Assembly: GCA_043748725.1 (NCBI GenBank)
Contig: JAYVER010000226.1
Span: 8,922 to 72,921 of the forward strand
Direction of reading: 5' to 3'
DNA: 64,000 nt
Source of the DNA: Chloracidobacterium sp.
GTDB taxonomy: Bacteria; Acidobacteriota; Blastocatellia; Pyrinomonadales; Pyrinomonadaceae
The notes below the pieces were generated by a model, which saw only the letters and a list, made by a program, of their open reading frames with translations, did no database searches and was not told the origin of the DNA. The position numbers and the translations under genes were made by a program. Below are positions 2-63,366 of the stretch, piece by piece. Position 1 is the stretch's first letter; every line of letters begins with the position of its first letter.

Positions 2-619
2 CAACTTGCGCTTTTTGGTTTTGTCGGCATTCCGGTCGAAGACCGGCCAAAAAGCCGTCTCTTTGTAACGGAACAGCCGAAACAATCTGTTGACGCCAGA
101 CTCTCATCCCTCATCCCTCATCCCTCATCCCTCGCCTTGCTTCATCCCACAACCGCGTTCTTTACAAAGCAGTGGCCAACAGAAAACTTTGCCCGAACAG
201 CCGAATACCTGGCCGAAAAGGGCATTAAAAGCGTTGCCGTCGCCTCGCAAAGCGAAAGCAGAATATTGGACGAACTAAAACATCATTCAAACGTGCTGAT
301 CCGCACATTCGATGATCTGACGCTGCCGGAGATCACAGCCCTCGCATCCAAAGCCCAACTTTTTGTCGGTAACGACTCCGGCATTGCCCACATTGCAGCG
401 GCCGTTCAAACGCCATCGGTGGTTATTTTTGGCTCATCAAACCGAGCACATTGGCGGCCATGGACGGACGCGCCAAATGAGATCGTCTATGAGGAGTTAC
501 CCTGCCAACCATGTCCCGGCTATACCTGCGAAGTGTTTGGTGAACCGAATTGTATATTGAGCGTAAAGCCCGAAGCCGTTTTTGCCGCCATAGACCGCGT
601 ACTCAAGTCAGAACCGTGA
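2..619 (+). CDS. glycosyltransferase family 9 (LPS heptosyltransferase-like), 5'-truncated by the window edge
   Basis: Frame 2 is open from nt 2 to the TGA at 617-619. The C-terminal half carries GT9-type motifs (KQWP; FVGNDSGIAHIAAA...VVIFG). Confidence 0.8.
   Translation, partial: QLALFGFVGIPVEDRPKSRLFVTEQPKQSVDARLSSLIPHPSSLALLHPTTAFFTKQWPTENFARTAEYLAEKGIKSVAVASQSESRILDELKHHSNVLIRTFDDLTLPEITALASKAQLFVGNDSGIAHIAAAVQTPSVVIFGSSNRAHWRPWTDAPNEIVYEELPCQPCPGYTCEVFGEPNCILSVKPEAVFAAIDRVLKSEP
104..131 (+). repeat. tandem heptamer (TCATCCC)x4 inside the GT9 coding sequence, with one extra isolated copy at 142-148
   Basis: Read directly: tcatccc tcatccc tcatccc tcatccc. Confidence 0.95.
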
Positions 620-638
620 GTGGTAACGACCGGGTTCT
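607..638 (+). repeat. GTCAGAACC-headed short dispersed repeat (copy overlapping the GT9 stop codon)
   Basis: The sequence gtcagaaccgtgagtggtaacgaccgggttct has AGAACC/GGTTCT arms. The same head motif recurs at five other sites in the window. Confidence 0.6.
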
Positions 639-652
639 TTATTCCTTCGCCT

Positions 653-1046
653 TTATCCTTTCGAGGCTTCCGCTTTCCCGATCGTTATCGTTCCATTGAG
701 TTCCAGCTTCATCACACCGTCGCGGTCGATATCCACCTCGTTAAAGAGCACCGTCCGTCGGATGTTTATTCCAAAATGTCTGCAGAACGGGTTGGCATTG
801 ATCACGCGGTTATAATACTTGTCCTTTTGCTTTACCGGAAAGGCGTTCGCCCTCCTTACATCCTCGGGCATTAGCCCGATCACCCTGCGGTCCTCGTCAT
901 AGCAGTTTCACTGCCGCCGGCATTCCCAACGCATCATACGCCGTCCGATTGAGCAGCATCACCCCGCGGTTATTCAAAGTCACCCTCGGCTTATCCCGAT
1001 CTGTCCGGTTCGGCCCTCCCTGAAACTCTGTCCATTGCTCGATCAT
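653..1046 (-). pseudogene. small conserved hypothetical protein split by a frameshift
   Basis: An ATG at 1046 is preceded by AGGAG. The reading ...ALGMPAAVKLL stops at 897-899, and the sequence continues without a gap in another frame as YDEDRRVIGLMPED... down to 653. Confidence 0.55.
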
Positions 1047-1149
1047 ATTTCCTCTCCTTTGCAGCTGAAACAATATATCACGGATGCAACATAACAGCAA
1101 GCGCAGGTCAGAACCGGAGTAAGAATTAGTTGTCCACAGAGGTTTTTGT

Positions 1150-1383
1150 TTAGGCTCCCCCGCCTCCCGGGATACACCTTGAATCGACGTAACCACCCTT
1201 TATTTGTTCCCACAATAAATCAGGTTCAGGGCAGACGAAGATAATAATTGGCGTATCTGAAATCACTTGAGGCATTTCACAAAAAGGCTCGCTCCATTTT
1301 TCGTAGAAATCATTAAATACTGCAACACTGGTAATACCAATGAAGAAAGTCAAAAATGCCGTTCTAAGTCTGGAGCATCTCAT
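1150..1383 (-). CDS. hypothetical small protein with an N-terminal hydrophobic segment
   Basis: ORF only. It is AT-rich and has no clear RBS. Confidence 0.25.
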   Translation of the reverse strand: MRCSRLRTAFLTFFIGITSVAVFNDFYEKWSEPFCEMPQVISDTPIIIFVCPEPDLLWEQIKGGYVDSRCIPGGGGA

Positions 1384-1432
1384 GTCTAAAAGATGCAGTG
1401 AGAAGCAGATAGAGATGCTTTAATCCAATGCC

Positions 1433-1741
1433 CTACGCGATGAGCAAACTGATCCGTCGGCCGAGGCCGTCTTCAAAGATGCGGTAGAGCGTTGAAAGCT
1501 GGATGTCGCATTTACCGTTTTCGAGCCGTGAGATGTAGCTTTTTTTGGTTCCAACCTTGTCTGCGAGCTGTTGCTGCGTCATCTTAGCTTCACGCCGAGC
1601 ATCCTTGAGAGTTTCGCTGATGACGAAATACTGTGCCCTTTCTTCAAATTCGTCACGTTTTTTCTCACCGATCTTGCCGTATTGAATATCCAATATCTCG
1701 TCAAAGTTTTTTGCGTTTCTTATTGCTTCGTTCTTTTTCAT
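1433..1741 (-). CDS. XRE-family HTH antitoxin (HigA-like)
   Basis: MKKNEAIRN...MTQQQLADKVGTKKSYISRLENGKCDIQLSTLYRIFE is a typical HTH_XRE partner of Gp49/HigB toxins. The start was chosen at the MKKNEA ATG (1741). Confidence 0.8.
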   Translation of the reverse strand: MKKNEAIRNAKNFDEILDIQYGKIGEKKRDEFEERAQYFVISETLKDARREAKMTQQQLADKVGTKKSYISRLENGKCDIQLSTLYRIFEDGLGRRISLLIA

Positions 1742-2087
1742 TTTGTTTACCTTTTGAAGCGAAATACTCATCTTTGAGTTTTTCCGCAAGTTCAATCTCC
1801 TGTTTCGGTGTCCTTTGGGTTTTCTTTTGAAATCCGTTAAACAGCACTACCAAATTGCCCCTGTCAAAACAGCAGAAGATTCGATAGATGTTGGGGCCTG
1901 ATTCGATCCTGATCTCGTATAGTCCATCCGAACCTTCGATGTGCTTCAGAAACTTTTCCTAAACCTTGTCGACCGTCTCGATTACGCGAAATACATAACC
2001 TATTTTCTCCCTGACATTGTCATTAACTATCAGGTAAAACTCCTGAAAATATTGTCCGTGAAAAATGATCCGTCTCTCGCGTTTCAC
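1701..2087 (-). pseudogene. Gp49-like / HigB (RelE superfamily) toxin with an internal TAG
   Basis: My own translation gives VKRERRIIFHGQYFQEFY...VIETVDKV*EKFLKHIEGSDGLYEIRIESGPNIYRIFCCFDRGNLVVLFNGFQKKTQRTPKQEIELAEKLKDEY. There is an in-frame TAG near 1957-1959. Confidence 0.75.
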
Positions 2088-6026: not shown

Positions 6027-6092
6027 GTTCAGAGTGCGCGATTTATCGCGTAATTTATTTGAAAGAGACGCGATAAATCACGCACTCTGAAC
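6027..6092. repeat. 24-bp-arm inverted repeat (GTTCAGAGTGCGCGATTTATCGCG ... CGCGATAAATCACGCACTCTGAAC)
   Basis: Arms lie at 6027-6050 and 6069-6092, with one mismatch and an 18-nt loop. A related element occurs at 63315-63366. Confidence 0.9.
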
Positions 6093-6096: not shown

Positions 6097-6609
6097 ATGG
6101 AAGAGCTTGTTGCCATCGCCAGGATCGTAAAGCCGCGCGGGCTGCGTGGTGAGTTGTTCGCCGAGCTATTGACGGATTTTCCTAAGCGTTTTGAGGATTT
6201 GGAAACGGTAACTGCGGTTATGCCGGATGAGAGCCGCTTTGAGTTGAAAATTGAAGAGCATTGGTTTCAAAGCGGCCGAATAGTTTTGAAATTTGCAGGT
6301 TATGACTCGATAGAGTTAGGCGAAACGCTACGAAACGCGGAAATATGTATCCCGCAATCTGCAGCTGTTGAGCTTGACGCGGACGAGTATTTCGACTGGG
6401 AATTGGTCGGCTGCAAGGTCGAAACCATCGAGGGGAAAACTGTCGGCACGGTTCGGGAACTAATGCGGACGGGCGGAACGGAGATTTTGGTAATTGACGG
6501 CCAAGAGAAAGAAACTTTAATACCATTTGCCGCCGCGATCTGCCCCAAAGTGGATATTGAGAACAAGCTGATCCAGATTGATCCACCTAAAGGACTGTTA
6601 GACTTTTAG
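6097..6609 (+). CDS. rimM: 16S rRNA processing protein RimM
   Basis: The start is RimM-like ([14 protein letters not shown]), a PRC-barrel C-terminus is present, and synteny fits. Confidence 0.93.
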
Positions 6610-6672
6610 ATTTTGGATTTTGGATTTCGGATTTTGGATTAAAAGAATCGAAAATCCAAAATCGGCAATCCA
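6610..6672. repeat. heptamer array (ATTTTGG)x4 plus an inverted partner (CCAAAAT words)
   Basis: attttgg attttgg atttcgg attttgg ... tcgaaaatccaaaatcggcaatccaaaat. The right arm abuts the trmD ATG at 6675. Confidence 0.9.
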
Positions 6673-6674
6673 AA

Positions 6675-7388
6675 ATGCGAATAGATGTCTTAACAATTTT
6701 CCCGGAGTATTTCAGCGAGATCTTTGAATTTGGGATTATCCGCCGGGCAAAACTCGCTAGCGTAGTCGAGATCAACATTCACGACATTCGCAAATATGCG
6801 ACCGATAAGCACAAAATGGTCGATGACCGGCCATTTGGTGGTGGCGACGGGATGGTTTTGAAGCCCGAACCCTTATTCGCCGCAATTGAAAATTTAATAG
6901 GCACAAGCGAACGCGACGCATACCCGACAGGCACGCGGGTCGTTATGCTCACGCCGCAGGGAAAGCCTTTGAAACAGGCGGTTGCGGGAGAGTTGTCCCG
7001 TGAGACAAAGCATCTCGTCCTGATATGCGGCCGCTACGAGGGCGTTGACGAACGTGTCAACGAAGCTTTGGTCACCGACGAGATCTCGATCGGCGATTAT
7101 GTGCTTTCAGGCGGTGAACCCGCAGCGGTGGTCGTTGTAGATGCACTCGTCAGGCTTTTGCCGGGCGCATTGGGCAGCGATACGTCGGCTGATAACGATT
7201 CTTTTTCCGACGGCCTGCTCGACTGTCCGCATTACACGCGACCGGCCGAATTTAGAGGGATGAAAGTCCCGGGAGTTTTATTGAACGGCAATCATGCCGA
7301 GATTGAAAAATGGCGTAAAATGAAGGGGCTCGAAAAAACGAGAGCCTCGCGCGGAGATTTATTAACAGGAGAAAATGGTGATATGTGA
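6675..7388 (+). CDS. trmD: tRNA (guanine37-N1)-methyltransferase TrmD
   Basis: [13 protein letters not shown]...[15 protein letters not shown]...[11 protein letters not shown]...[11 protein letters not shown]. Confidence 0.97.
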
Positions 7389-21660: not shown

Positions 21661-23487
21661 CTAGATCAGATCGACCGGCTCGATCTTGATCTGGGCGCGT
21701 TTTAGCGTGACGTTTGATTCCCTACAGAACTCGCGAACGCTTTTGAGCTTATCGGGCGGCATATTGCGCACCGATACTAGAATTTCGGCAATATCTTTTT
21801 GACGGCAGATGTCGGCGAGCGAGCCGTTTCCGTCAAAAACCTTGAGGCCGTGAATAAGTTTATCCTTTTTCAACGGATCGTCGTCGATAAAACCGACCGC
21901 CGTGTAGTTCCACTCTGGATTATTGTTCAGTTCCCTTAAAACCATCTCGCCGCCGTCGCCGGCACCGTAAATAAGCACTTTTTGCCCGTCACCCGAAACC
22001 GGGAGAGGCAGTATTTGTCTGATCACGCGAAACGCCATGCGGCTCCCGACGACGGCTAACAGCAAAAGAATGCCGTCAAGAATGAACACCGTCCTTGAAA
22101 AGCCCTCGAACCGATATATGAGCAGAACCGCCATTACGCTCAGAATCGAGCCGAGCAGCACGCCTTTTGTAAACGTAATAAAGTCGCCGATACTCGTATA
22201 TCGCCACAAACCGCGATACACGCCGACGGCCAGAAACGAGCCGATCTTGATCAGTATCAGCAGCGGCAGGGTCTTGAGGAAAAGATCCCAGTTCGTCGAG
22301 CTCTCGAACGAAGCAAACAGCAAAGCAAACGCCGAGTAATACGCAAGCGTCACCAGAAAAGCGTCGAGAAATACCTCGAAGATGCGGCGTTTGTGTGACA
22401 CATTGACCAGAAACGCGAACACGGCATTTTCGGCAGCCGCCTGATCTTCATCCGTGCCTTCATAAACCTTGACTTTAGAAAGATAAACGCCAAGTATCAC
22501 CAGCAAAAGCGTAAAAAACCCTATGAGCGCGAAGCTCTTATAGACGCCGATCTGGCCGACAGAAAGTGCGAGAGCACCGGCGATAATGGCAAAGGCGTAG
22601 AGCATCAAGACGGCGTTTCGTTCCGAGAGGCCGAGCGCAACGAGCCGGTGCGATGTATGGTCGAGGCCGCCCTGTGACGCTTTTCTGCCCCAAAGTTTTC
22701 GTAGAACCGTCACAAATGTCGTGTCGAAAATGGGAACGAAAAGCACTAGGACGGGAACAGCCAGAATGGCCACAATGCCGCGCGAGCGCCCGCCGACCTG
22801 ATTTAGCAAGACCGAACCCGAAAGCAAAAATCCGACAAACATTGAGCCGCAGTCGCCCATAAAGATCGACGCCGGATTGAAATTAAAGACCAAAAATCCA
22901 AGCAACGCCCCGATCAATGCTGCGGATAAAAGCAGCTCGTTTGTCAGCCCGTTCGCGGCAAAATTGAGCGCCAGCGAAACGGACGCGATGGCTGAAATGC
23001 CGACCGCGAGACCGTCCATATTGTCGAGCAGGTTTATAGCGTTCGTAATGCCGATGACCCAAAACACGGTCAGCCAGATATCAATGATCTCGAAGCCGGT
23101 CAACGGCAGCTTGAGTCCTGAAAGCACAAGAATGCCGGCACCGATGAGCTGGCCGATCAGCTTTTGATAGGGCCGGATCGTTAAGATGTCGTCAAGTAGC
23201 CCGACCAAAAACAGGAATGCGCTGCCGCCAAACACGACCATTGAGCTGCGTGTCGGCGGCACAAGGAGAAAGTAGGCAACGGCCGTGGAAAGAAATATCG
23301 CGACACCGCCGAGCATCGCCGTCGGACGTTTATGCCAGCGGTCGGATTTCGGCTTGGCGACAAAACCGCGCCGCACAGCAAATGTCCTGACGGATAGCGT
23401 CAGGATTACCGACAAAATTGCGGCCACACTTCCGACAAAGATTGGGTTTGAGATCAAACCTTGCATAATTAAGAAAGAATGGAACAC
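21661..23487 (-). CDS. MraY/WecA-family polyprenyl-phosphate sugar-1-P transferase fused to an extra 4-TM and Rossmann-like (CapD/WbaP N-terminal type) module
   Basis: NAINLLDNMDGLA and FMGDCGSMFVGF motifs occur in the N-terminal half. VLIYGAGDGGEMVLREL...VGFIDDDP occurs near the C-terminus. The start could be GTG 23487 or ATG 23466. Confidence 0.8.
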   Translation of the reverse strand: MFHSFLIMQGLISNPIFVGSVAAILSVILTLSVRTFAVRRGFVAKPKSDRWHKRPTAMLGGVAIFLSTAVAYFLLVPPTRSSMVVFGGSAFLFLVGLLDDILTIRPYQKLIGQLIGAGILVLSGLKLPLTGFEIIDIWLTVFWVIGITNAINLLDNMDGLAVGISAIASVSLALNFAANGLTNELLLSAALIGALLGFLVFNFNPASIFMGDCGSMFVGFLLSGSVLLNQVGGRSRGIVAILAVPVLVLFVPIFDTTFVTVLRKLWGRKASQGGLDHTSHRLVALGLSERNAVLMLYAFAIIAGALALSVGQIGVYKSFALIGFFTLLLVILGVYLSKVKVYEGTDEDQAAAENAVFAFLVNVSHKRRIFEVFLDAFLVTLAYYSAFALLFASFESSTNWDLFLKTLPLLILIKIGSFLAVGVYRGLWRYTSIGDFITFTKGVLLGSILSVMAVLLIYRFEGFSRTVFILDGILLLLAVVGSRMAFRVIRQILPLPVSGDGQKVLIYGAGDGGEMVLRELNNNPEWNYTAVGFIDDDPLKKDKLIHGLKVFDGNGSLADICRQKDIAEILVSVRNMPPDKLKSVREFCRESNVTLKRAQIKIEPVDLI

Positions 23488-23583
23488 GGATGGCCACGGA
23501 TCGAAACGGATTTACACGGATATGATTTTTTATTTTAATCCTCTGACCCGTGTTTATCCGTGCTTTTTCAGTGCAGATCCGTG
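23483..23583. repeat. inverted pair of 10-bp-phased word arrays (CACGGAT x4 / ATCCGTG-type x4-5)
   Basis: CGGAT starts at 23487, 23497, 23507 and 23517. An AT-rich spacer follows, then CCGTG/CAGTG words near 23547, 23557, 23568 and 23578. Confidence 0.9.
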
Positions 23584-23642
23584 TTCTATTTATTGTTAAG
23601 CGTTATTACAAGCCAATTATCGCAGAAAATCAACCGTCAAAG

Positions 23643-25552: not shown

Positions 25553-25565
25553 AAAACAATCTTAA

Positions 25566-25631
25566 CGCAGAGTACGCTGAGAACGAAGAGGAAGCCGAAG
25601 TAAATTCTCTGCGTACTCTGCGGCCTCTGCG
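25566..25631. repeat. inverted pair of 9-bp-phased arrays (CGNAGAG x3 / CTCTGCG x3)
   Basis: cgcagag at 25566, cgctgag at 25575, cgaagag at 25584; ctctgcg at 25607, 25616 and 25625. Confidence 0.92.
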
Positions 25632-25644
25632 TTTAAAATCCTGC

Positions 25645-33261: not shown

Positions 33262-33361
33262 TAACAACTGATTATCGCAGATTTACACGGATTATTTTTA
33301 TTAGGTCAGATCCGCAGCAATCGAGTTAGGTAAATTTATCCGCGCCAATCCGCGCCAATCC
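33262..33361. repeat. 10-bp-phased word arrays downstream of the GxxExxY gene (GATT x3, then ATCC x3)
   Basis: GATT starts at 33270, 33280 and 33290. ATCC starts at 33338, 33348 and 33358; the last units encode the C-terminal residues of the ORF. Confidence 0.9.
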
Positions 33362-33767
33362 GTTGTTCAAATTCTTCCGCTGGCTTTCCTAACCGGTTGA
33401 TTAAACGATGATGTTCGAAACTTTGTGCTCCGAAATTCAAAATCAGTGCGAGTTCCAGCCCGGTTGCTTTTAGATAGTTCAATGTCTGGGCTTTGTGAAC
33501 ATTTGTAATTCTTTCCGCAACCTTTAATTCGAGAATTAGCCGCTGCTCGACAAGAATATCTGCACAATAATCCCCGACAATTTCACCTTCGAATCTAACC
33601 TTGATAGGCACCTGCTGTTCGGCAAACATCCCCTCTCTCCGAAACAGAACCATCAACGAATTTTCATAAACCTTTTCCAAATACCCGTGACCAAGCGTTC
33701 GATGACCCTGCATTCCAAGTCCAATGACCTTATAAGTCAGGTCACCATATAGCAGTTCTTCGCTCAT
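33336..33767 (-). CDS. GxxExxY protein (PD-(D/E)XK-like orphan cassette family)
   Basis: GHGYLEKVYENSL (GxxExxY) ...DILVEQRLILELKV... matches the TIGR04256-type pattern as I recall it. Confidence 0.8.
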   Translation of the reverse strand: MSEELLYGDLTYKVIGLGMQGHRTLGHGYLEKVYENSLMVLFRREGMFAEQQVPIKVRFEGEIVGDYCADILVEQRLILELKVAERITNVHKAQTLNYLKATGLELALILNFGAQSFEHHRLINRLGKPAEEFEQRIGADWRG

Positions 33768-33775
33768 AAAATATT

Positions 33776-33840
33776 CAACAACGGATTAACGCAGATTGAC
33801 ACGGATTACTCTTTATTTTTGATTGAGAAATATCCGCCGT
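33776..33840. repeat. 10-bp-phased GATT word array upstream of the GxxExxY gene
   Basis: aacaacggattaacgcagattgacacggatta, with GATT starting at 33784, 33794 and 33804. The words match those at 33262-33293 and 53488-53520. Confidence 0.88.
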
Positions 33841-33850
33841 TTCAAACTCC

Positions 33851-36094: not shown

Positions 36095-37381
36095 CTACCG
36101 GCTTTGCAAAAGCCTTTCGTATATCCGGCGGTAGCGCAACCCGCCAACCGTTTCGAGATCAAAACGGTGTTTGGCCGTCCGGCGGCATCGTTCGCCAATG
36201 TCGCCGAGGGCGGCAAGCTGCTCTATCGCGGCAAGATAACTTACCCGGTCAAAGCGGTCGATCAGGACGCCGACCGCTTCGTCCCGGATCAGGCTGTCAA
36301 CATCGCCAACGCCCGAATTGGCAATTATCGGCAGACCGGCGGCTAAATATTCGGCGTTTTTCGTTGGCGACGACGCTTGTTTTGAATAACAGCGTTTGAT
36401 AAACGAGATCGCGGCATCGGCGGCGTTAAGATAAGCCGGAATTTCGTCAGGAGTGACGCTTTTGACGAGATAATCGGCTTCCCCAAAGCCTTTTTCTCTG
36501 ATCCTTGCTATGGCCAACTCGGGCTGCCGCTGGGTGAGAATGATTACAAAAATATTTGGGTCTGCTTCACGTGCCGCCGCAAAGAAATCAAACATCTCGT
36601 CAGTCAAATACCAGCCGCCAAACGAGCCGACATACGCTAAAACCCTGCGATTTCCCACTCCCAACCGCCGCCGCATTTCCGTGCGTGAATCTTCAGTCGC
36701 CTCATCAAATCGCGTCAGATCCACGCAGCACGGAATGACCTCAATAGGACGACCGTCCAATTTTGGATTTTGGATTTTGGATTTTGGATTTTCGGAATCC
36801 GCGTTCCCAAATAAAATATCTCTTGCTTTTTCCGTCAAAACAACAAATCCGTCGGCTTCTTTCAGCAGCCATTTCTCGACTCGTTTGGCAGCGCGGTAGA
36901 GCCAGCCGCCTTCCGGCCAGATGCCGGCGTCGGTGTATTCTTCTGGAAAAAAACCGCGAATATCGAATAACAGCTTTGGCTTACGTCGCGAAAATTTACG
37001 GGCCAAAGCACCCATCAGCGTCGGAATATGCACCCGCCCGTGCAGAATGTCTATCTTTTCGCGTGCAATAAAACGCCGGACAAACAATGTTCCGCGAAAG
37101 ATGTCATACGCCGTCGCAATGGCCGATGGCCGTTTATGATACCGCAGCCAATGCCAGTCAATGCCATTTTCAGCCAACTTCGCCCTCAGTCTTTTTTCTT
37201 CCCCTTCTCCAACCGCCTGTGGCTCGAAAGTAAGCAATGCAACTTGTACCGCCAAATCGCCGCGTCCCCGCGTCCCCGCGTTCCCGTGTCCAATTAACTC
37301 TTTCAAATACGGAATCACCTGCGTCTGAACCAGCGGCTCGCGTAAACCGAAATAACAAATATAAAGGGTTTTGGAAGGCAT
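36095..37381 (-). CDS. glycosyltransferase family 4 carrying an intragenic heptamer-repeat insert
   Basis: PTKNAEYLAAGLPIIANSGVGDV motif. The segment [15 protein letters not shown] is encoded by the TTTTGGA repeats. Confidence 0.82.
   Translation of the reverse strand: MPSKTLYICYFGLREPLVQTQVIPYLKELIGHGNAGTRGRGDLAVQVALLTFEPQAVGEGEEKRLRAKLAENGIDWHWLRYHKRPSAIATAYDIFRGTLFVRRFIAREKIDILHGRVHIPTLMGALARKFSRRKPKLLFDIRGFFPEEYTDAGIWPEGGWLYRAAKRVEKWLLKEADGFVVLTEKARDILFGNADSENPKSKIQNPKLDGRPIEVIPCCVDLTRFDEATEDSRTEMRRRLGVGNRRVLAYVGSFGGWYLTDEMFDFFAAAREADPNIFVIILTQRQPELAIARIREKGFGEADYLVKSVTPDEIPAYLNAADAAISFIKRCYSKQASSPTKNAEYLAAGLPIIANSGVGDVDSLIRDEAVGVLIDRFDRVSYLAAIEQLAALGDIGERCRRTAKHRFDLETVGGLRYRRIYERLLQSR
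36761..36796. repeat. tandem heptamer (TTTTGGA)x4 plus a degenerate unit inside the GT4 coding sequence
   Basis: ttttgga x4 (36761-36788), then ttttcgga. It is the same word as the intergenic array at 6610-6672. Confidence 0.95.
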
Positions 37382-45213: not shown

Positions 45214-45340
45214 AAATGACGGAACTGATAGCCCGTTCGCCGAACCAAAAAAATTAACAATATGAGGTTTTGCAAGTGTAATGGGGTTTGGCCCGCTATG
45301 TCAAACAATTATGGGAGTAAAACATTATTAACCTTAGAGG

Positions 45341-45373
45341 TGTTCCAGTGTTCCGGAACGGAACATTGGAACA
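45341..45373. repeat. 15-bp-arm hairpin (TGTTCCAGTGTTCCG-gaa-CGGAACATTGGAACA) built from GTTCC/GGAAC words
   Basis: Read directly. It lies 9 nt downstream of the thiC stop and has one mismatch. Confidence 0.85.
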
Positions 45374-45381
45374 AAGGTTGG

Positions 45382-47510
<2,129 letters not shown>

Positions 47511-47676
47511 TATTGCTCCTAAATTGTAAGACAAAATTAACTAATCTACGAATATGCTGCCGGTTTAAGGATATTTTTATTTTTTTGTCAGCATTCTATG
47601 CAACTCTTTAATAAAGGCGCTATACTAACAATAAAGTATGTTTACCATTAATTAAAGATTTATAACAAGGTTTAAT

Positions 47677-49590: not shown

Positions 49591-49611
49591 CGGGAGTAAG
49601 TGTCTTTTTCG

Positions 49612-49704
49612 CTCAGCGCTCTCAGCGTCCACCTCCATGTCCTCCGCGTTAAAAAAAATTTTAAACGCAGAGCCCGCTAGAGACTACCGCAGAGTTTCGC
49701 GGAG
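49612..49704. repeat. inverted pair of 9-11-bp-phased arrays (CTCAGCG/CTCCGCG words, then CGCAGAG/CGCGGAG words)
   Basis: The left array starts at 49612, 49621, 49632 and 49642. The right array starts at 49666, 49675, 49688 and 49698. It lies between convergent genes. Confidence 0.85.
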
Positions 49705-49716
49705 AAAGCCAAAACA

Positions 49717-50586: not shown

Positions 50587-50597
50587 AATATTTTTGC

Positions 50598-50622
50598 CAC
50601 GAATTACACGAATAACACGAAT
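50598..50622. repeat. CACGAAT x3 at a 9-bp period
   Basis: Starts at 50598, 50607 and 50616, within the 39-bp spacer between divergent start codons. Confidence 0.9.
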
Positions 50623-50625: not shown

Positions 50626-51807
50626 ATGAAAAGGCTATTGTTTTTAACGATTATTCTGCTTCCGGTTTTTGTGTTCGCGCAGCCAAAACTTGTGCCGAAC
50701 AAGATCAGGTTAAAGAGCGGCAAAACATTTAACCTCAATCTGCCGTCTGAATTTGAGATCATGCCGGCGGTCGAAGGGCTGAAACGGGTGCGGTTTTTTG
50801 CCAAATCGCCGGACGGCCGTGTCTTTGTTACGGATATGTATAACCTGACGGACAATAAACGCGGGGTCGTGTACATTCTCGACGGTTTTGATGCAGTTAC
50901 GGGCAAGTTTGCCAAGATCATTCCGTACATGACCAATCTCAAAAATCCGAACAGCGTCCAATTTTACCGCGACGCAAACGGCCAGGATTGGTTCTATCTC
51001 GCGGAAACGGACAAGCTGACGCGGCGAAAATTTACCCTCGGCGAGACCAAGCCGACCGACCACGCTCCGCAGACGCTAGCAACTTTTCCGGATTACGGCC
51101 TGAGCTACAAATACGGCGGCTGGCACCTCACGCGGACGATTGCCTTTGCCCCGAACGGCAAACTTTACGTCTCGGTCGGGTCGAGCTGTAACGCCTGCGT
51201 CGAAAAAGAAAAAGTGCGGGCAAGCGTGATCGAAATGAACCCGGACGGCAGCGGCCAACACGAATTTGCGAGAGGATTGCGTAATGCCGTCGGGCTGAAA
51301 TGGATCGGTAACTTCCTGTGGGCTTCGGGTCAGGGTGCCGATCATTTGGGTCTGCAAAAGCCGGACGAGACGTTTTACGCGTTGAAGGATGGGATCGATT
51401 ACGGCTGGCCGTATTGCTATTCTGCGTTGGGCAAGATCATCGCCGACCCCGCATATCGCCGACCCGAAGGCTGTAAAAATGTAGCCGCTCCATACGCCTT
51501 CTTCCCCGCCCATGCTTCGGCACTCGGCTTTGATTATTTTGACGACGCTGACTCATCCGGCACGATCAAAGACGCATTCCTCGTCGCGCTCCACGGCTCG
51601 ACCAACAAAGCGATAGGCCACGGCTACAAGATCGTCATTATGCGAAAAGGCGAGAGGCTCCAAGATTTTATAAGCGGCTTTTTGCAAGGCTCAACGGTCG
51701 TCGGCAGGCCGTGCGACATCATGAAACTCGACGCTAATTCATTCATGTTTACGGATGATTATTCGGGCATTGTCTATCTCGTCCGGAGACGAGTCGGGAG
51801 AGTCTAG
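50626..51807 (+). CDS. sorbosone/glucose dehydrogenase-like beta-propeller protein (secreted)
   Basis: Signal peptide MKRLLFLTIILLPVFVFAQ and FAPNGKLYVSVGSSCNAC. The start was set at ATG 50626. Confidence 0.78.
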   Translation: MKRLLFLTIILLPVFVFAQPKLVPNKIRLKSGKTFNLNLPSEFEIMPAVEGLKRVRFFAKSPDGRVFVTDMYNLTDNKRGVVYILDGFDAVTGKFAKIIPYMTNLKNPNSVQFYRDANGQDWFYLAETDKLTRRKFTLGETKPTDHAPQTLATFPDYGLSYKYGGWHLTRTIAFAPNGKLYVSVGSSCNACVEKEKVRASVIEMNPDGSGQHEFARGLRNAVGLKWIGNFLWASGQGADHLGLQKPDETFYALKDGIDYGWPYCYSALGKIIADPAYRRPEGCKNVAAPYAFFPAHASALGFDYFDDADSSGTIKDAFLVALHGSTNKAIGHGYKIVIMRKGERLQDFISGFLQGSTVVGRPCDIMKLDANSFMFTDDYSGIVYLVRRRVGRV

Positions 51808-51831
51808 AGCGTCTAGTGAGTCTTGAGAGTC
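51791..51831. repeat. GAGTC-word array, five units at an exact 9-bp period
   Basis: GAGTC starts at 51791, 51800, 51818 and 51827, with GCGTC at 51809. The first two units lie inside the last codons of the upstream gene. Confidence 0.92.
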
Positions 51832-51868: not shown

Positions 51869-52231
51869 ATGGCAACGTTCAAAAAATTCGAAGACATTTT
51901 GGGATGGAAAAAAGCTCATGAAACCACGAATTATGTCTATATAGTTACTGGCGAAGGATCATTTTCGAAAGATTTCGGCCTTCGCGATCAATTACGGCGT
52001 GCAAGTGTTTCCATAATGGCCAACATCGCCGAAGGTTTTGGTCGTCGGTCGGACAAGGAGTTTGCTAATTTTCTAAATATGGCCCACGGATCTGCGGCTG
52101 AATGCCAGTCACATTTATATATTGCTCTTGACTTTCATTATTTAACCCAACCACAATTCGACCAACTTTATGCGGCGTTCGGCGAATGTTCAAAAATGGT
52201 TATTGGTCTCAGCCATCATTTGCGTAAATAA
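51869..52231 (+). CDS. four-helix-bundle protein (23S rRNA intervening-sequence protein family, TIGR02436-like)
   Basis: QLRRASVSIMANIAEGFGRRSDKEFANFLNMAHGSAAECQSHL is the hallmark motif. Confidence 0.88.
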   Translation: MATFKKFEDILGWKKAHETTNYVYIVTGEGSFSKDFGLRDQLRRASVSIMANIAEGFGRRSDKEFANFLNMAHGSAAECQSHLYIALDFHYLTQPQFDQLYAAFGECSKMVIGLSHHLRK

Positions 52232-52251
52232 ACCCACCCAATATGCTCTTT

Positions 52252-52328
52252 GACTCTTCTGACTCACAAGACTTTCGAGACTTACATGACTCTCTGGACT
52301 TGCCAGACTCTCAAGACTCGCTAGACTA
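52252..52328. repeat. GACT(C)-word array, nine units at an exact 9-bp period (inverse of the 51791-51831 array)
   Basis: GACT starts at 52252, 52261, 52270, 52279, 52288, 52297, 52306, 52315 and 52324. The array ends 8 nt before the bshA ATG. Confidence 0.95.
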
Positions 52329-52335
52329 GAAACTA

Positions 52336-53478
52336 ATGAATATTGGCATCACTGTTTATCCGACATACGGCGGCAGCGGAATTGTTGGCTCCGAGCTGGG
52401 CCGGGACTTGGCTGAACGTGGCCACAACGTCCATTTTATCTCGTCATTTTTGCCGACGCGGCTTACGGAGTTGAACGAGCGGATACATTTTCACGAGGTG
52501 GAAATGATGTCGTATCCGCTGTTTGAGCATCAGCCGTATGATCTCGCTCTGGCGACAAAAATGGCGACCGTCGCCCGGGCCGAAAAGCTCGATCTTTTTC
52601 ACGTCCATTACGCGATCCCGCATTCGATCAGCGCGATCCTGGCGCGGGAATCTATCAAGCAAAAACGATATGTGCCGGTAATTACGACGCTTCACGGCAC
52701 CGATATCACGCTGGTCGGCGCCGACCGCTCGTATTTGCCGATCACTCGTTACGGTCTGCAGCAATCGGATGGCGTGACGGCCGTGTCGAAGTTTTTAAAG
52801 CAGGCGACGATCGAGACGTTTGATTTCGACGAGATCGAAGTGATTCCCAATTTTATTTGTCCGACTCACTATAAACGTCTTCCTGACTCGCCTTTGCGGG
52901 CCGAATTAGCTCCGAATGGAGAACGGCTTTTAACCCACGTTTCCAATTTCCGCCCGGTAAAACGCCCCGCCGATTGCGTTGAGATCCTCGCAAAGGTTAG
53001 GGCTGGCGGCGAAAACGCACGGCTGGTGATGGTCGGTGACGGGCCGGAATTATCCGCAGTCCGCTACCGTGCCGAACAGATCGGCGTGATCGACGATTGC
53101 ATTTTTGTCGGCAAACAGGCGAATATTGCCGACTATCTTGGCGTTGCCGATGTTTTTTTGCTGCCGTCCGAACTGGAATCGTTCGGCCTTGCCGCTTTAG
53201 AGGCACAAGCGTGCGAAGTGCCGGTCATAGCGACTCGTATAGGCGGCATCCCTGAAGTTGTTAATGAAGGCGAGAGCGGCTTTTTAAGCGACGTTGGCGA
53301 TATTGAAAAAATGAGTATTGATACACTGCGGTTGCTTGGCGACGAGCAACTGCGGCGTGCCTTTGGCGAACGAGGCCGTGAACTTGCCATCCAGCGATAT
53401 TCGACCGGACAGATCATCCCGCAATACATCGCTTTTTACGAAAAGGTAGTGCAAAAGGCCAAATCCGCAACCGCGTGA
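52336..53478 (+). CDS. bshA: N-acetyl-alpha-D-glucosaminyl L-malate synthase BshA (bacillithiol biosynthesis GT4)
   Basis: The start MNIGITVYPTYGGSGIVGSELGRDLAERGHNVHFI is characteristic of BshA. Confidence 0.88.
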   Translation: MNIGITVYPTYGGSGIVGSELGRDLAERGHNVHFISSFLPTRLTELNERIHFHEVEMMSYPLFEHQPYDLALATKMATVARAEKLDLFHVHYAIPHSISAILARESIKQKRYVPVITTLHGTDITLVGADRSYLPITRYGLQQSDGVTAVSKFLKQATIETFDFDEIEVIPNFICPTHYKRLPDSPLRAELAPNGERLLTHVSNFRPVKRPADCVEILAKVRAGGENARLVMVGDGPELSAVRYRAEQIGVIDDCIFVGKQANIADYLGVADVFLLPSELESFGLAALEAQACEVPVIATRIGGIPEVVNEGESGFLSDVGDIEKMSIDTLRLLGDEQLRRAFGERGRELAIQRYSTGQIIPQYIAFYEKVVQKAKSATA

Positions 53479-53487: not shown

Positions 53488-53564
53488 AACAACGGATTAA
53501 CCCGGATTTACGCCGATTAAATTCCTATTTCTTAATCCGTGTAAATCCGCGTCAATCCGTTGTT
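53488..53564. repeat. 33-nt-arm imperfect palindrome made of 10-bp-phased GGATT / AATCC words
   Basis: aacaacggattaacccggatttacgccgattaa ... ttaatccgtgtaaatccgcgtcaatccgttgtt. Confidence 0.92.
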
Positions 53565-53579: not shown

Positions 53580-54599
53580 ATGCTCAAACGCTACATGCAC
53601 AACCGTGAACGGCATTTTGCGATGCTTAACGACAACCGCGTAGTGCATCCGTTTGACTGGGGCACTGAATTTATCAGCGATCACGCGAATGGCGACGATC
53701 CGCGAAAGGTCTTTAGCGATTATTCGAAGTGGGCGGTTAAGCACAGCGATGAATTTTTCTTTTCGCCGGAGATTTCAGATTTTAAATTAGAACTTGACCG
53801 GTTAACCTGGACAAGCGCAATCGCCACACCCTCTGTCGAAAACAACACTGTTTACGCCAAATATTTCCCAAACGGAAAAAACTGCAAATCCGCCGTGCTG
53901 GTCCTGCCGCACTGGAACGCTAAGGCCGGAACGTATTTCGATCTCTGCAAAATATTCAACCGCATCGGTATTTCGGCATTGAGGCTGACGCTGCCATATC
54001 ACGAAGAACGCATGCCGCCGGAACTTGAGCGTGCCGACTATATGGTGGCCCCAAATGTCGGTCTCACTCTGCAATCGCTGCGCCAGGCAACTGTTGACAC
54101 ACGCTCAGCCGTCCGATGGCTCAAACAGCAGGGTTATGAAAAGATCGGGATCGTCGGCACGAGCATCGGTTCGTGTATCGGATTTTTCGCCTTTGTCCAC
54201 GATATGCAGATCAACGCAGCGGTTTTCAACCATGTTTCCGGCTACCCGGCCGACATCGTTTGGCACGGCCTCTCGACCTATCACGTAAAACAGGGCATCG
54301 GCGACAATCTCAACCTCGATGAGCTTCGCGAATACTGGCTGCCGATCTCGCCTATGTCGTATATCGAGCGGCTCTCAAATCTCCCGCCGCGTCCGCAGCG
54401 TTATATTTATACACTCTATGACCTCAGCTTCCCACTCAATTTATCGCTTGACACAATGGCAGCGCTAAAAAAGCACAAGATAAAACACAGCCGATCCGCC
54501 ATCCCTTGCGGCCACTACACCCTCGGCGAAATACCCTGGGTCTATCTCGATGGCTATAAGATCGTGTCGTTTTTGCGGAAACATCTTCGCGCTCGTTAG
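53580..54599 (+). CDS. alpha/beta-hydrolase fold protein
   Basis: GTSIGS nucleophile elbow. Confidence 0.7.
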   Translation: MLKRYMHNRERHFAMLNDNRVVHPFDWGTEFISDHANGDDPRKVFSDYSKWAVKHSDEFFFSPEISDFKLELDRLTWTSAIATPSVENNTVYAKYFPNGKNCKSAVLVLPHWNAKAGTYFDLCKIFNRIGISALRLTLPYHEERMPPELERADYMVAPNVGLTLQSLRQATVDTRSAVRWLKQQGYEKIGIVGTSIGSCIGFFAFVHDMQINAAVFNHVSGYPADIVWHGLSTYHVKQGIGDNLNLDELREYWLPISPMSYIERLSNLPPRPQRYIYTLYDLSFPLNLSLDTMAALKKHKIKHSRSAIPCGHYTLGEIPWVYLDGYKIVSFLRKHLRAR

Positions 54600-54632
54600 C
54601 AAGGGTGGATTTGATTTTGGTCAGTCAAGATG

Positions 54633-54660
54633 CACCCTCCCTTACGGTCGGGTTTCTGAC
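54633..54660 (-). repeat. GTCAGAA-headed dispersed repeat copy (degenerate)
   Basis: The reverse complement reads gtcagaaacccgaccgtaagggagggtg. Confidence 0.45.
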
Positions 54661-54723
54661 GACGAACAACTCTATCCATTCCAGATTACATCCAATCAAT
54701 GCTAAAATCTTGTCAACTTTTGC

Positions 54724-55674: not shown

Positions 55675-55707
55675 GGCGTTCAGTTAGTGGGTTACGAAAA
55701 CCTGTAA

Positions 55708-55815
55708 CCACAGAGATATTTGAAATTAACAGGGATAAAAAGGATAAAGGAGATTTTTTTGGTTTTTCCTAATATCCCGCTTTATCCCCTCAATCCCTGT
55801 TAATTTTCTCTGTGG
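55708..55815. repeat. long imperfect inverted repeat with GGGATA / ATCCC words between the sigma and anti-sigma genes
   Basis: ccacagagatatttgaaattaacagggataaaaaggataaagg ... atcccgctttatcccctcaatccctgttaattttctctgtgg. Confidence 0.88.
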
Positions 55816-55822
55816 CTAATAA

Positions 55823-58900: not shown

Positions 58901-58928
58901 AAAAGGGGCAGCCAAATGACCGCCCTTT
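58900..58928. terminator. hairpin between convergent genes (AAAGGGGC ... GCCCTTT)
   Basis: Read directly. The stem is imperfect. Confidence 0.4.
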
Positions 58929-60849: not shown

Positions 60850-60867
60850 ATCTGCGTTAAACGAGCA

Positions 60868-61248: not shown

Positions 61249-62110
61249 AAAACAGCAGTCAGCAGTCAGCAATCAGCAGTCAGACGCCGAACGTCAAATT
61301 CTAACCGAAACAGGCTTCTTTTGGCGAGAACGCGATGGCGTTAGAGTGTTGGTATGCCGCGATCTGGAAGATGCGGGTTTTGTAAATGGGTTTTCGACGC
61401 GAATCGGCGGCGTTTCGCCGTTTCCCAATGACGACCTGAATCTCGCCGGTTTTGACGAAGACCCAGCCGCGAATATTGCCGAAAACCGGCGGCGTTTTCT
61501 CGCGGTTTTCGGCGGTGAAATGCAGCTGGCAACCGTCTGGCAGGTTCATGGGCACGCGATCAAAACCATCAAAGACATGGCGGAAATTGGTAGTTCCGAC
61601 GAGCGGGCGGACGCGATTGTTTCTGATCTAAGCGGCTTTTTCGTCGGTGTAAAAACTGCGGATTGTGTGCCGATACTGATCGGTGATCCGAGAAGCGGAG
61701 CATTTGCAGCTGTCCACGCGGGTTGGCGTGGCACGGCGCAATCAATTGTGAAAAAGGCGGTTACGAGAATGAGCGATATTTACGGCACGGACCAGAAAAA
61801 CCTGATCTGTGCAATCGGCCCGGCGGCAAGCGGCTGCAACTATGAGATAGGCGGGGATGTGATCAACGCATTCGCTGAAAATTTTGCAAACAGCGAAAAG
61901 TATCTCAGCCCGACCCGCGACGGACACGCTCTGGTCGATCTTCACCTCGCCAATCGCGATCAATTGATCGACCTTGGCGTGCGGGATGAAAACATCTTTA
62001 CAGCCCCGTTCTGCACGATTGAGCGACCTGATCTTTTCTTTTCTTACCGCTTGGAAAAAAGGAAATACGGCAAAACCGGCCGTCTTTTATCCGTCATCGG
62101 CCGTCGTTAG
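61223..62110 (+). CDS. pgeF: peptidoglycan editing factor PgeF (YfiH / laccase-domain, DUF152)
   Basis: GFSTRIGGVS...VHGH...VKTADCVPIL...VHAGWRGT. The start codon is uncertain. Confidence 0.88.
   Translation: MSMPMESIIKQQSAVSNQQSDAERQILTETGFFWRERDGVRVLVCRDLEDAGFVNGFSTRIGGVSPFPNDDLNLAGFDEDPAANIAENRRRFLAVFGGEMQLATVWQVHGHAIKTIKDMAEIGSSDERADAIVSDLSGFFVGVKTADCVPILIGDPRSGAFAAVHAGWRGTAQSIVKKAVTRMSDIYGTDQKNLICAIGPAASGCNYEIGGDVINAFAENFANSEKYLSPTRDGHALVDLHLANRDQLIDLGVRDENIFTAPFCTIERPDLFFSYRLEKRKYGKTGRLLSVIGRR
61253..61280. repeat. tandem heptamer (CAGCAGT)x4, third unit CAGCAAT
   Basis: Read directly at the acpS/pgeF divergent junction. Confidence 0.95.
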
Positions 62111-62145
62111 CTACTATCTAAAGGCCCGTGCATCACCCACCAAAT

Positions 62146-62240
62146 CTCTGCGATACTTTGCGTAAAACTCGGCGAGCTCTCTCGTTTAATCAGATTTTTA
62201 ACGCTGAGACCGCTGAGTCGGACGCAGAGATCACGGAGAC
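62146..62240. repeat. inverted pair of phased arrays (CTCTGCG-type words, then CGCTGAG/CGCAGAG words)
   Basis: Left words start at 62146, 62156, 62168 and 62177. Right words start at 62202, 62211, 62223 and 62234. It lies between convergent genes. Confidence 0.85.
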
Positions 62241-62269
62241 GAATATGCGTGGCACGATCAACGCTGCTG

Positions 62270-62743
62270 CTATCTCACCCTGGTCGTCAGCGTAACTTCT
62301 TTTGATTTGGGCGGATAACATACTTGATTGGTGCAAGCCTGATATTTGACCACGACGCGAACCGGCACCGAATTTCCCTTAAAACCCGCCGGGACGGTCA
62401 CATTAAATCCAAACGACACGCGGCCTTCGTACACGTTTAGCGCCTGTTCGGAAAACTCGAATTTGCGGTTATGCCCGCGCGGATAGCTGACCGATCCTAT
62501 CCTCGCTCCGTTTGAGGTTGCACGAACCGTGGTGGCGATGGCATATTCGCCGCTTGGCCGATTCGAATTCACATGCAGGCCGCCGGGAATGTTCAAAACG
62601 ACCATCGCCCGCGCCGGTGTGCCGCGGGTAACTGTTCCGTTTCCGATGGAGCCGCTGACGCTCTGGGCGTCAATATTTGTGAAATAGCCCGCTATCGCGA
62701 TCACGCCCGCCAAAATGCCAACTTTCATTATCTGTTTCATCAT
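62270..62743 (-). CDS. secreted DsbD N-terminal-domain-like protein
   Basis: Signal peptide, and a C-terminal YQACTNQVCYPP motif typical of DsbD_N-like domains. Confidence 0.6.
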   Translation of the reverse strand: MMKQIMKVGILAGVIAIAGYFTNIDAQSVSGSIGNGTVTRGTPARAMVVLNIPGGLHVNSNRPSGEYAIATTVRATSNGARIGSVSYPRGHNRKFEFSEQALNVYEGRVSFGFNVTVPAGFKGNSVPVRVVVKYQACTNQVCYPPKSKEVTLTTRVR

Positions 62744-62786
62744 AAAATTTCCTAATAAACTAATGCCTTGTAAGATGAGTTTTATT

Positions 62787-63305
62787 CTATTTTAGTTCAA
62801 AGCCAGCGACCATTACTTCGATTTTACGCACAAATTCGTCAGGGGTTTCGGCAAGACGTAGTGCCTCAAGCCTGTAAATTTTGCCGTCTTTCTTGGCGAT
62901 CTTATAGTAACCGCAAAGACTTACGCCCTTTTCAACCCGTTTCGTTTCGATCACGCGATAACGCCTGGAACCTATTACTTCGCTGATGTCAGCAACGATC
63001 TCATCGCCGGGTTTCGTTAGTTTTTCTGTACTGTCATCGAGGGTTTGTCCGTCGAGAACGGTTAAATTAACACGCCCCTGCCTGATATCACCGGCGCCAT
63101 CCCCGCCAAAATCCTTCGAGTAAGATTCAAATACATATTTCGGATCGCCATTGATGATATTCAAAAAACCGTTCGGCTTTTGGATGACAAAATCTTGTGT
63201 TTCGATGGTCTCAGCCTCAAACGCCGCCGCAGCCGTCTTTTTTATCCGCGTCGAGGCATACACCATCAATCCAACGAGAATGAGTCCCAGAATGAGTATT
63301 TCCAT
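62787..63305 (-). CDS. hypothetical membrane-anchored protein
   Basis: The start was set at MEILILGLILVGL (ATG 63305). The upstream part of the long ORF is made of repeat sequence. Confidence 0.5.
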   Translation of the reverse strand: MEILILGLILVGLMVYASTRIKKTAAAAFEAETIETQDFVIQKPNGFLNIINGDPKYVFESYSKDFGGDGAGDIRQGRVNLTVLDGQTLDDSTEKLTKPGDEIVADISEVIGSRRYRVIETKRVEKGVSLCGYYKIAKKDGKIYRLEALRLAETPDEFVRKIEVMVAGFELK

Positions 63306-63314
63306 AATCGTATG

Positions 63315-63366
63315 TTCAGAGTGGGGCTTCAGCCCGTATTTACGCGATAAATCGCGCACTCTAAAC
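63315..63366. repeat. second copy of the GTTCAGAGTG...CGCGATAAATCGCGCACTCT element
   Basis: gttcagagtggggcttcagcccgtatttacgcgataaatcgcgcactctaaac. Compare 6027-6092. Confidence 0.8.

Follow-up and report, generated by a model that had tools for sequence, protein, structure and literature searches.

Many of the larger intergenic gaps in a 64,000-nt stretch of Chloracidobacterium sp. contig JAYVER010000226.1 (the window, by which we mean the whole stretch analysed) hold short words repeated in phase, mostly as two arrays facing each other in inverted orientation. We find that such arrays are tied to two small gene families, whose members they enclose: GAGTY/RACTC arms flank genes for a four-helix-bundle (4HB) protein of the 'S23p' type, and CRCRRAT/ATYYGYG arms flank genes for GxxExxY proteins, each word family being exclusive to its gene family. 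This pairing recurs in ~150 loci from many phyla, plus finished cyanobacterial plasmids. At a probability only a little better than even (about 0.55), we read the arrays as forming the two arms of stem-loop elements, akin to the intervening sequences (IVS) of 23S rRNA but located in protein-coding operons, where they would form an RNA stem in read-through transcripts, be processed like an rRNA IVS and have their word cores read by the cargo proteins encoded in the loop. We found no general published account of the tie between arrays and two cargo gene families; for the arrays themselves, the Coxiella IVS and the arrays of Xanthomonas are known precedents.

Behind this association is a survey of two sets of 80 loci each: genomic loci with genes for GxxExxY relatives, and metagenomic loci with genes for 4HB relatives. 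Pyrinomonadaceae, Pyrinomonadales and 'Chloracidobacterium' metagenome-assembled genomes are the sources of related loci. Under a strict test (an exact 5-mer occurring three times in phase within 150 nt of the open reading frame, ORF), arrays lie upstream of 30/72 GxxExxY and 42/67 4HB genes and downstream of 37/72 and 41/67, with complementary words on both sides at 21 loci of each family; the corresponding counts for controls are 3/281, 6/281 and 0. A word-agnostic periodicity scan finds upstream arrays in 62/78 GxxExxY and 69/78 4HB loci, and alignment of the upstream flank with the reverse complement of the downstream flank scores at least 12 in 62 GxxExxY loci, 53 4HB loci and no control. 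The words separate with the genes: AGTY occurs three or more times upstream in 59/70 4HB loci versus 2/77 GxxExxY loci, and CACRRA at least twice upstream in 52/77 GxxExxY loci versus 0/70 4HB loci. Arm construction differs as well, GxxExxY arms having periods of 9–10 bp exclusively and mostly three units (51/67 and 55/65 loci), and 4HB arms periods of 7–9 bp and 3–20 units. A shared TTAGCCACGAAT terminus marks GxxExxY loci from Brocadia, Jettenia, Scalindua, Desulfobacterota, Pseudomonadota, KSB1 and others, and on finished plasmids of cultured Nostoc the 4HB genes are flanked by GGGAAAA/TTTTCCC or CAGGAGT heptamers. Heptamer arrays and 9–10-bp arrays thus represent two classes of one design.

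When complete, an element consists of a 5′ arm, a single small ORF occupying the loop exactly and, as its 3′ arm, the array inverted. The last 5′ unit often forms the start codon (CACGAATG) and the stop codon often lies within the first 3′ unit (TGACTC); complete elements leave no room for a promoter or terminator. Conserved termini read TTAGCCAC.../...GTGGCTAA or TTAAC.../...GTTAA, the others being A/T runs. The cargo gene points the same way as its upstream neighbour in 67/70 and 42/43 loci (~97%) and as its downstream neighbour in 57/69 and 37/43. Paired hairpins in the window occupy 12 of its 31 intergenic gaps of at least 45 nt: 10/20 co-directional gaps, 2/4 convergent and 0/7 divergent (12/24 against 0/7; Fisher p = 0.026). 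Co-orientation, the lack of promoter room and the absence of hairpins from divergent gaps suggest that the elements are expressed, and act, as part of the host transcript.

Some surveyed loci have further features. In L074 (13440–13840), a small ferredoxin-like ORF with two Cys clusters sits in a CACAGAT hairpin nested within a CACGAAA hairpin, so cargo extends beyond the two main gene families. In L177 (Pseudanabaena plasmid NZ_CP112875.1, 46268–46627) the 4HB gene lies between annotated cas6 and cas4, and the arm-flanked 4HB genes of the metagenome contigs L113, L118, L124, L127 and L142 adjoin CRISPR adaptation genes; an ORF whose N-terminus is Cas1-like, by sequence reading rather than profile testing, starts just downstream of the 4HB gene in five contigs.

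The window holds a gene-bearing element of each family (Table 1). Its 4HB ORF matches PF05635 ('23S rRNA intervening sequence protein') at 4e-35, as well as TIGR02436 and the pentameric PDB entry 2GSC. The arms around it are computed to form a duplex of −62.6 kcal/mol (z −7.8), and the 3′ arm stops 6 nt short of the start codon in the next gene, which encodes a GT4 glycosyltransferase. In the last units of this arm, just upstream of that start codon, lies a sigma-70-like match (TTGCCA-16-TAGACT, 52300–52327) whose GCTAGACT end is also retained in the relatives L006 and L008; promoter-like hits in total equal chance expectation, so we take the match as a hint. In the GxxExxY element, the strong arm of the upstream hairpin (AACAACGGATT/AACGCAGATT/GACACGGATT) pairs over ~30 bp, across the gene, with the arm that the ORF overlaps at its 3′ end (−66.6 kcal/mol, z about −7.7). 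The two flanks, AACAACGGATT... and ...AATCCGTTGTT, are of the ACGGATT type and their termini are those of the gene-less hairpin at 53488–53564. The final 16 codons of the ORF are translated arm and are disordered in the structure model (pLDDT 86), which otherwise shows a Cas4/lambda-exonuclease-like PD-(D/E)XK domain. Given this domain and the invariance of D70, E80 and K82 in GxxExxY proteins, the modelled protein is probably an active nuclease. A structure search with the model returned generic Cas4/lambda-exonuclease-type PD-(D/E)XK matches alone (TM ~0.5), which do not reveal the substrate.

Table 1. Phased-array elements and related features of the window (coordinates in nt; periods in bp; z, folding score against dinucleotide shuffles)
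Feature	Position	Strand	Description
5′ arm of 4HB element	51788–51831	+	five GAGTC units, period 9; pairs with 52249–52329
Cargo ORF, four-helix-bundle protein ('S23p')	51869–52231	+	PF05635/TIGR02436 profile match
3′ arm of 4HB element	52249–52329	+	nine GACT(C/T) units, period 9
Cargo ORF, GxxExxY PD-(D/E)XK nuclease (predicted)	33336–33767	-	PF13366/TIGR04256
Hairpin upstream of GxxExxY ORF	33777–33843	-	arms 33777–33807 (strong) and 33830–33843 (degenerate)
AATCC-type arm overlapping 3′ end of GxxExxY ORF	33338–33367	-	pairs with 33777–33807
Second small hairpin, downstream of GxxExxY ORF	33274–33325	-	CGCAGATT/CACGGATT against ATCCGCAG; z −2.7
Gene-less hairpin	53488–53564	+	3+3 ACGGATT units, period 10; z −10.6
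Gene-less hairpin	23481–23586	-	CACGGAT x4 / ATCCGTG, period 10; z −6.2
Gene-less hairpin	25562–25636	-	TTAA-CGCAGAG x3 / CTCTGCG x3-TTAA, period 9; z −4.3
Gene-less hairpin, reversed polarity	49610–49704	.	CTCTGCG arm, TTAA-loop-TTAA, CGCAGAG arm; z −1.65
Gene-less hairpin, reversed polarity	62145–62239	.	CTCTGCG/CGCAGAG type; convergent genes flank; z −6.0
Nested hairpin pair	55706–55817	+	outer stem CCACAGAGA/TCTCTGTGG; inner CAGGGATAA x3 / ATCCC x3; z −4.8
Gene-less heptamer hairpin	6609–6676	+	GGATTTT x4.5 / AAAATCC; fills rimM–trmD gap; z −5.4
Small hairpin	45328–45385	-	TTAACC...GTGTTCC x2 / GGAAC x3...GGTTAA; z −5.9
Single arm, no partner	50596–50622	+	GCCACGAAT x3, period 9
Doubtful member, unpaired CAGCAGT x4.4	61253–61283	+	AGTC in phase; divergent gap
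Doubtful member, ATTTTGG x4.7 + GGATT/AATCC mini-hairpin	36760–36800	-	in frame, interdomain linker of GT4 glycosyltransferase
Doubtful member, CTCATCC x4.4	103–133	+	in frame, linker of GT9 heptosyltransferase ORF

The phased arrays are real: null models and independent assemblies together rule out both chance and assembly artefact. Counting exact 5-mers that recur three times in perfect phase at periods of 6–12, with 40 Markov-1 simulations as the null, gives 12 clusters in the window versus 0.78 expected (simulation maximum 3; ~15-fold), and near-perfect tandem arrays number 7 versus 0.13 expected. Against dinucleotide shuffles the paired hairpins fold with z of −4.3 to −10.6, with two weak exceptions (49605–49712, z −1.65; 33770–33845, z −1.0). 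Identical array sequence was recovered from independent ENA and Logan assemblies of several samples, and related strains at 90–96% identity carry the window arrays. A preliminary description of the window had named a null comparison and independent assemblies among its tests, and the arrays stand on both; its suggestion that they be checked for association with GxxExxY and 4HB genes was the key lead to the present result.

Other parts of that description fared unevenly. Every locus it listed exists, with its word at or within a few bases of the position reported, and its statement that arrays occupy many of the larger gaps agrees with our count. Most are inverted pairs, as it held, but those at 103–133, 36760–36800 and 61253–61283 are unpaired direct repeats and 50596–50622 is a single arm; nor are all heptamer loci intergenic, 103–133 and 36760–36800 lying inside glycosyltransferase ORFs. 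Phasing described as strict in fact wobbles by 1 nt, and some arms carry insertions (49610–49704). The anticipated folded form with evenly spaced bubbles is borne out, computed folds giving regularly spaced internal loops, 2×2 to 5×5 in some hairpins; complementarity restricted to the words was overstated, however, for nearly every position is paired in 53488–53564. Placement of all words on one helix face holds for the 9–10-bp class and not for the 7–8-bp class. The words, listed as different, prove largely akin: a single pattern, CRCRRAT, with one or two letters changed, covers CACGGAT, ACGGATT, CACGAAT, CGCAGAT, CGCAGAG, CACAGAG and CAGGGAT.

Judged by their words and periods, most arrays in the window are gene-less hairpins of the same two designs as the gene-bearing elements. 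The CRCRRAT-variant hairpins, mostly with three units per arm at 9–10 bp, follow the GxxExxY design and the GAGTC arrays the 4HB design; the GGATTTT and GTTCC arrays fit the 7–8-bp class by period alone. Hairpin 53488–53564 shares AACAACGGATTAAC termini with the GxxExxY element and is 100% conserved in the related loci L003–L005. The single arm at 50596–50622, which L003 and L005 carry unchanged (100%), runs up to the ATG of the following gene, an arrangement also seen in GxxExxY elements. The hairpin at 49610–49704, whose units are irregular, has convergent genes on both sides and a cleaner 3+3 version in L003. At 55706–55817 the inner hairpin is bounded by TTAA, and L006 has at the same site a CGCAGAG hairpin alone. 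Next to the GTTCC/GGAAC hairpin, comparison of L003 (1–2330), a strain ~90% identical, with the window (45382–45552) shows the 3′ end of thiC duplicated on either side of an inserted alpha/beta-hydrolase gene. A further tandem repeat, at 37260–37291, lies in frame in a GT4 N-terminus; together with 103–133 and 36760–36800 (7-/8-bp units), such in-frame repeats, inside two surface-polysaccharide glycosyltransferase ORFs, are candidate phase-variation switches or else hairpin-element arms inserted in frame.

Sequence conservation in the arms is concentrated in the words. Positions C, A, C and A of CACxxA carry 1.5–2.0 bits across phyla and the spacers 0.1–0.5 bits, in a scan biased by its requirement of at most two mismatches to the word but with which the unbiased word-agnostic scan agrees. 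Both arms have the same word variant in 44/57 loci, versus 18.5 ± 2.8 under shuffling. The preliminary description had considered a single sequence-specific binding protein unlikely, and indeed none can explain all the words; the broader inference that sequence-specific recognition is unlikely fails, because the word families are exclusive to two gene families and the CACxxA core is near-invariant.

Its suggestion of a generative mechanism is supported by the comparison of relatives that it proposed: between close strains, whole units come and go. Certain hairpins are unchanged (100%) amid third codon positions of 85–89% identity, and another is just 60% identical between strains because units were gained or lost. 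The 49.6-kb hairpin differs by 3 versus 4 units between the window and L003, and L005 has an 11-nt deletion between two GACTC words of the 3′ arm (52249–52329) and, within its 4HB gene, a recombination breakpoint. In L006 the 4HB gene and upper stem are missing; GAGAGTC-TCAT-GACTCTC remains, with four more GACT units, and the breakpoints fall at mirror positions of the stem. In the gap between the GT4 glycosyltransferase gene (52336–53478) and a 339-aa gene (53580–54599), the ACGGATT units of the window have CACAGAT units as their counterpart in L006. Hairpins are also nested in the loops of other hairpins, at 55706–55817 in the window and at 6650–6890 in L074. At the site after an M14-like peptidase gene, ~27 genomes all have a CACGAAT-type array, usually within ~20 nt of the stop codon, in several states: arm-ORF-arm, hairpin-ORF-arm, with extra loop inserts, or as gene-less hairpins (L044, L046).

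The window comes from Pyrinomonadaceae (Acidobacteriota, Blastocatellia), the name under which homologues of its 339-aa protein (53580–54599) are filed at NCBI, and encodes polysaccharide-synthesis genes, the rpsP–rimM–trmD operon, thiC with a thiamine pyrophosphate (TPP) riboswitch and further housekeeping genes. Rfam covariance models, relaxed to E ≤ 1, matched none of the array hairpins and gave as sole match in the window the TPP riboswitch upstream of thiC (RF00059, 70 bits, 47407–47512, minus strand), which rules out a known RNA family as the identity of the arrays. The same scan found no rRNA gene in the window, where the array elements sit between protein-coding genes, and profile scanning of 50 window ORFs found no transposase domain. 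The hairpins are not intrinsic (Rho-independent) terminators: they have no T runs and go uncalled by a terminator scan that does call a canonical terminator at 58906–58925, and one lies inside the rimM–trmD operon. Restriction-site or uptake-sequence arrays are ruled out: outside the arrays the words show neither depletion nor any other peculiarity. Read as codons, the 9-bp GACTC arm gives M-(D-x-x)n, yet periods of 7, 8 and 10 bp exist as well, which excludes coding, as translated peptide repeats, as the cause of the arrays. CsrA-type GGA motifs were dropped, as GGA words are paired in the stem and half of the words have no GGA.

Two palindromic features of the window stand apart from the arrays. 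A near-perfect 66-nt palindrome at 6027–6092 (GTTCAGAGTGCGCGATTTATCGCG...), in the rpsP–rimM gap after a KH-domain gene, has no phased words and is thus a hairpin of another kind. Behind the 339-aa hydrolase gene, the gap at 54600–54723 is a hotspot for other, non-phased palindromic inserts, which differ in each relative (L006, 5628–5895; L007, 11005–11165); the window's insert is absent from L003.

Ribbon-helix-helix operators offer one parallel to the arrays: the 7-bp heptads of omega, the ACTC boxes of ParG and the 8-bp metboxes of MetJ are read cooperatively by small oligomers. Short words repeated at 7–9 bp, direct and inverted, are common to both. We dropped this identity since the array sites lie outside promoters, in dozens of gaps, whereas those operators stand in promoters, each kind serving a single operon or a small number of them, and because a ribbon-helix-helix fold is absent from both cargo proteins. 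Heptamers in tandem also make up the cyanobacterial short tandemly repeated repetitive (STRR) sequences, with 7-bp units in intergenic DNA.

The preliminary description knew of no named class that matched the arrays, but there are clear precedents, the closest being the S23p-type 23S rRNA IVS of Coxiella burnetii, Leptospira and Brucella (PMC4990558). In Coxiella the IVS is a stem-loop whose loop holds the S23p ORF; GACAGAT heptamers, two or three depending on the strain, stand directly upstream of it, and the stem is cleaved by RNase III at the first of these repeats (PMC4990558). Shared with the present elements are the ORF family (PF05635) in the loop of a long terminal-complement stem, the upstream tandem units that vary in number between strains and the orientation of the ORF in sense to the host transcript. 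The elements described here differ in lying between protein-coding genes rather than in helix 25 or 45 of 23S rRNA, in having whole arrays of 3–20 units as both arms, in their second cargo family, GxxExxY, with its own word, and in that most copies are gene-less; RNase III cutting is known for the IVS and would apply here by analogy. By location they are therefore not members of the rRNA IVS family, although the S23p ORF and the enclosing stem are both present.

Xanthomonas genomes contain 70–75 convergent (inverted) pairs of GGGAATC heptamer arrays each (Rehm et al. 2015, PMC4692102). These occupy intergenic DNA close to 3′ ends, seldom in divergent gaps, and are both transcribed and conserved between species; like the GGGGA(C/T)T arrays of Nostoc, they were read as G-quadruplex formers and linked to no gene (PMC4692102). 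Tandem intergenic units, inverted pairs and placement are common to those arrays and ours, but here the words are mostly not G-rich, 9–10-bp periods dominate and two cargo families are tied to the arrays. Repetitive extragenic palindromic elements (REP/BIME, and REPINs with their RAYT transposases; PMC3733652, PMC3116915) are likewise abundant imperfect intergenic palindromes, often in inverted pairs and in transcribed gaps, and have roles in mRNA stability. The present elements have no GTAG/CGTC tag, their termini being TTAGCCAC, TTAAC or A/T runs; a REP arm is one unit of 20–40 bp rather than a phased array; here the hairpin itself encloses the associated gene, whereas RAYT genes lie elsewhere in the genome, and scanning of the window ORFs identified no RAYT gene. 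The literature also offers a looser parallel in the TAACTGA direct repeats of Beggiatoa. Searches on GxxExxY, PF05635, PF13366, S23p and heptamers found no paper linking these gene families to phased flanking arrays in general.

The IVS-like reading leads to a mechanism in several steps. Since they sit in sense behind host genes and have no promoter room, the elements would be transcribed by read-through from those genes. In the transcript the arms would pair into an imperfect duplex of 25–45 bp which, as for rRNA IVS, could be a substrate for RNase III-type processing; we infer that both pairing and cleavage take place in vivo. Such processing would separate or stabilise the flanking cistrons and control the cargo mRNA. 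Unit turnover and concerted change of the arms are observed, as are the anatomy, the tie of words to genes and the orientation bias: the arrays expand and contract by slippage of whole units, with the two arms kept alike in concert. The word cores would stay constant because something, most likely the cargo proteins, reads them sequence-specifically.

Several observations weigh against this. Cleavage by RNase III is proposed by analogy with the rRNA system. The 44/57 count for concerted change ignores the shared ancestry of the loci. On the sense strand, G–U mismatches are not in excess of A–C mismatches (65 versus 66 and 59 versus 51; isolated mismatches, 26 versus 21 and 18 versus 19), so that RNA pairing is not singled out over DNA-level constraint, and arm complementarity could equally be attributed to a DNA-level process or to one protein reading both arms. 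The arrays flanking the L177 plasmid gene are direct rather than inverted (AAAAGCT x15, AAAAGCC x9). Arm polarity is reversed in two of the three CGCAGAG hairpins, whose loops contain TTAA, and 1.6 Mb of loci contained no cargo gene for this word variant. The unpaired heptamers inside ORFs, finally, may be ordinary simple-sequence repeats.

The main rival is a mobile or homing element acting at the level of DNA, which we consider possible if unlikely. Here the arms would be terminal inverted repeats with three subterminal sites about one helical turn apart, and GxxExxY a minimal transposase or homing endonuclease, cutting hairpins that lack a gene and copying its own into them; the gene-less hairpins would be empty targets or akin to MITEs (miniature inverted-repeat transposable elements). 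The lack of G–U bias fits this account, as do the conserved inverted termini, the invariant D70/E80/K82 in a Cas4/lambda-exonuclease-like fold, the presence or absence of the 4HB gene among relatives with a breakpoint inside it, and nesting, both in L074 and where a TTAA-bounded hairpin occupies the TTAA-containing loop of another (55706–55817). A design near-identical in distant phyla also implies horizontal transfer. It fits less well that the architecture is shared by the elements of the 4HB protein, which lacks a nuclease fold, and that ~97% of cargo genes are in sense to the upstream gene, which is unusual for transposons. The M14-like peptidase site, occupied across ~27 genomes, argues that recent movement is rare, and the window copies, which share words and not spacers, are not near-identical as active MITEs are. 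No clean empty/filled site pair was found, and no target-site duplication is demonstrated on a true pair of this kind.

Improbable, in our view, is that the hairpins act by structure alone, stabilising or punctuating mRNA as REP-like elements do, with arms made by replication slippage and unequal copy number tolerated, and with words that are shared by descent with hitch-hiking genes and read by nothing. Strong folds, sites in transcribed gaps (including the inside of the rpsP–rimM–trmD operon), unit gain and loss and the different words of L006 and the window at one orthologous gap would all follow from it. A constraint on pairing alone, however, predicts drift at all word positions, not a CACxxA core at 1.5–2.0 bits, and leaves unexplained both the fixed three units of GxxExxY arms and the exclusivity of words to gene families.

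Highly improbable as an explanation are simple-sequence repeats that work through non-B DNA (G-quadruplex or i-motif) or as phase-variation switches, an idea put forward for the GGGAATC arrays of Xanthomonas and the GGGGAYT arrays of Nostoc, despite the similarly placed inverted heptamer pairs of PMC4692102 and the heptamer arrays inside two glycosyltransferase ORFs of the window, because most words (GAGTC, CACGAAT, CGCAGAG) have no G-tract of 3 or more, 9–10-bp arrays fixed at three units are unlike a copy-number switch and arrays are identical in strains 4–10% diverged. Heptamer repeats of the quadruplex-forming kind have four or more units, with three or more consecutive G in each; the window words GAGTC, CACGGAT, CGCAGAG and GGATTTT do not provide these, and GGG in window words is limited to the CAGGGAT units at 55726–55754, at most two units.

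A bolder reading, and a doubtful one, is that GxxExxY (a Cas4-like nuclease) and the Avd-like pentameric 4HB protein each recognise their own phased array; that the hairpins are autonomous elements of a new class, spreading by entry into hairpin loops in rRNA, in operon spacers and in other copies of themselves; and that 23S IVS, STRR and GGGAATC arrays form one system.

TIGR02436 and TIGR04256 proteins are numerous in Acidobacteriota, Cyanobacteriota, Planctomycetota, Desulfobacterota and other phyla. The packaging of each in a hairpin whose arms carry family-specific words gives them a concrete, testable nucleic-acid target, and points to a possible common origin for rRNA IVS, the heptamer arrays of the STRR and GGGAATC kinds and the phased hairpins of intergenic DNA. 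Annotation artefacts that recur, with ORFs starting or ending in translated repeats, are explained by it as well. With ~40% of the larger gaps in the window occupied, the elements are relevant to operon-level RNA processing in soil Acidobacteriota.

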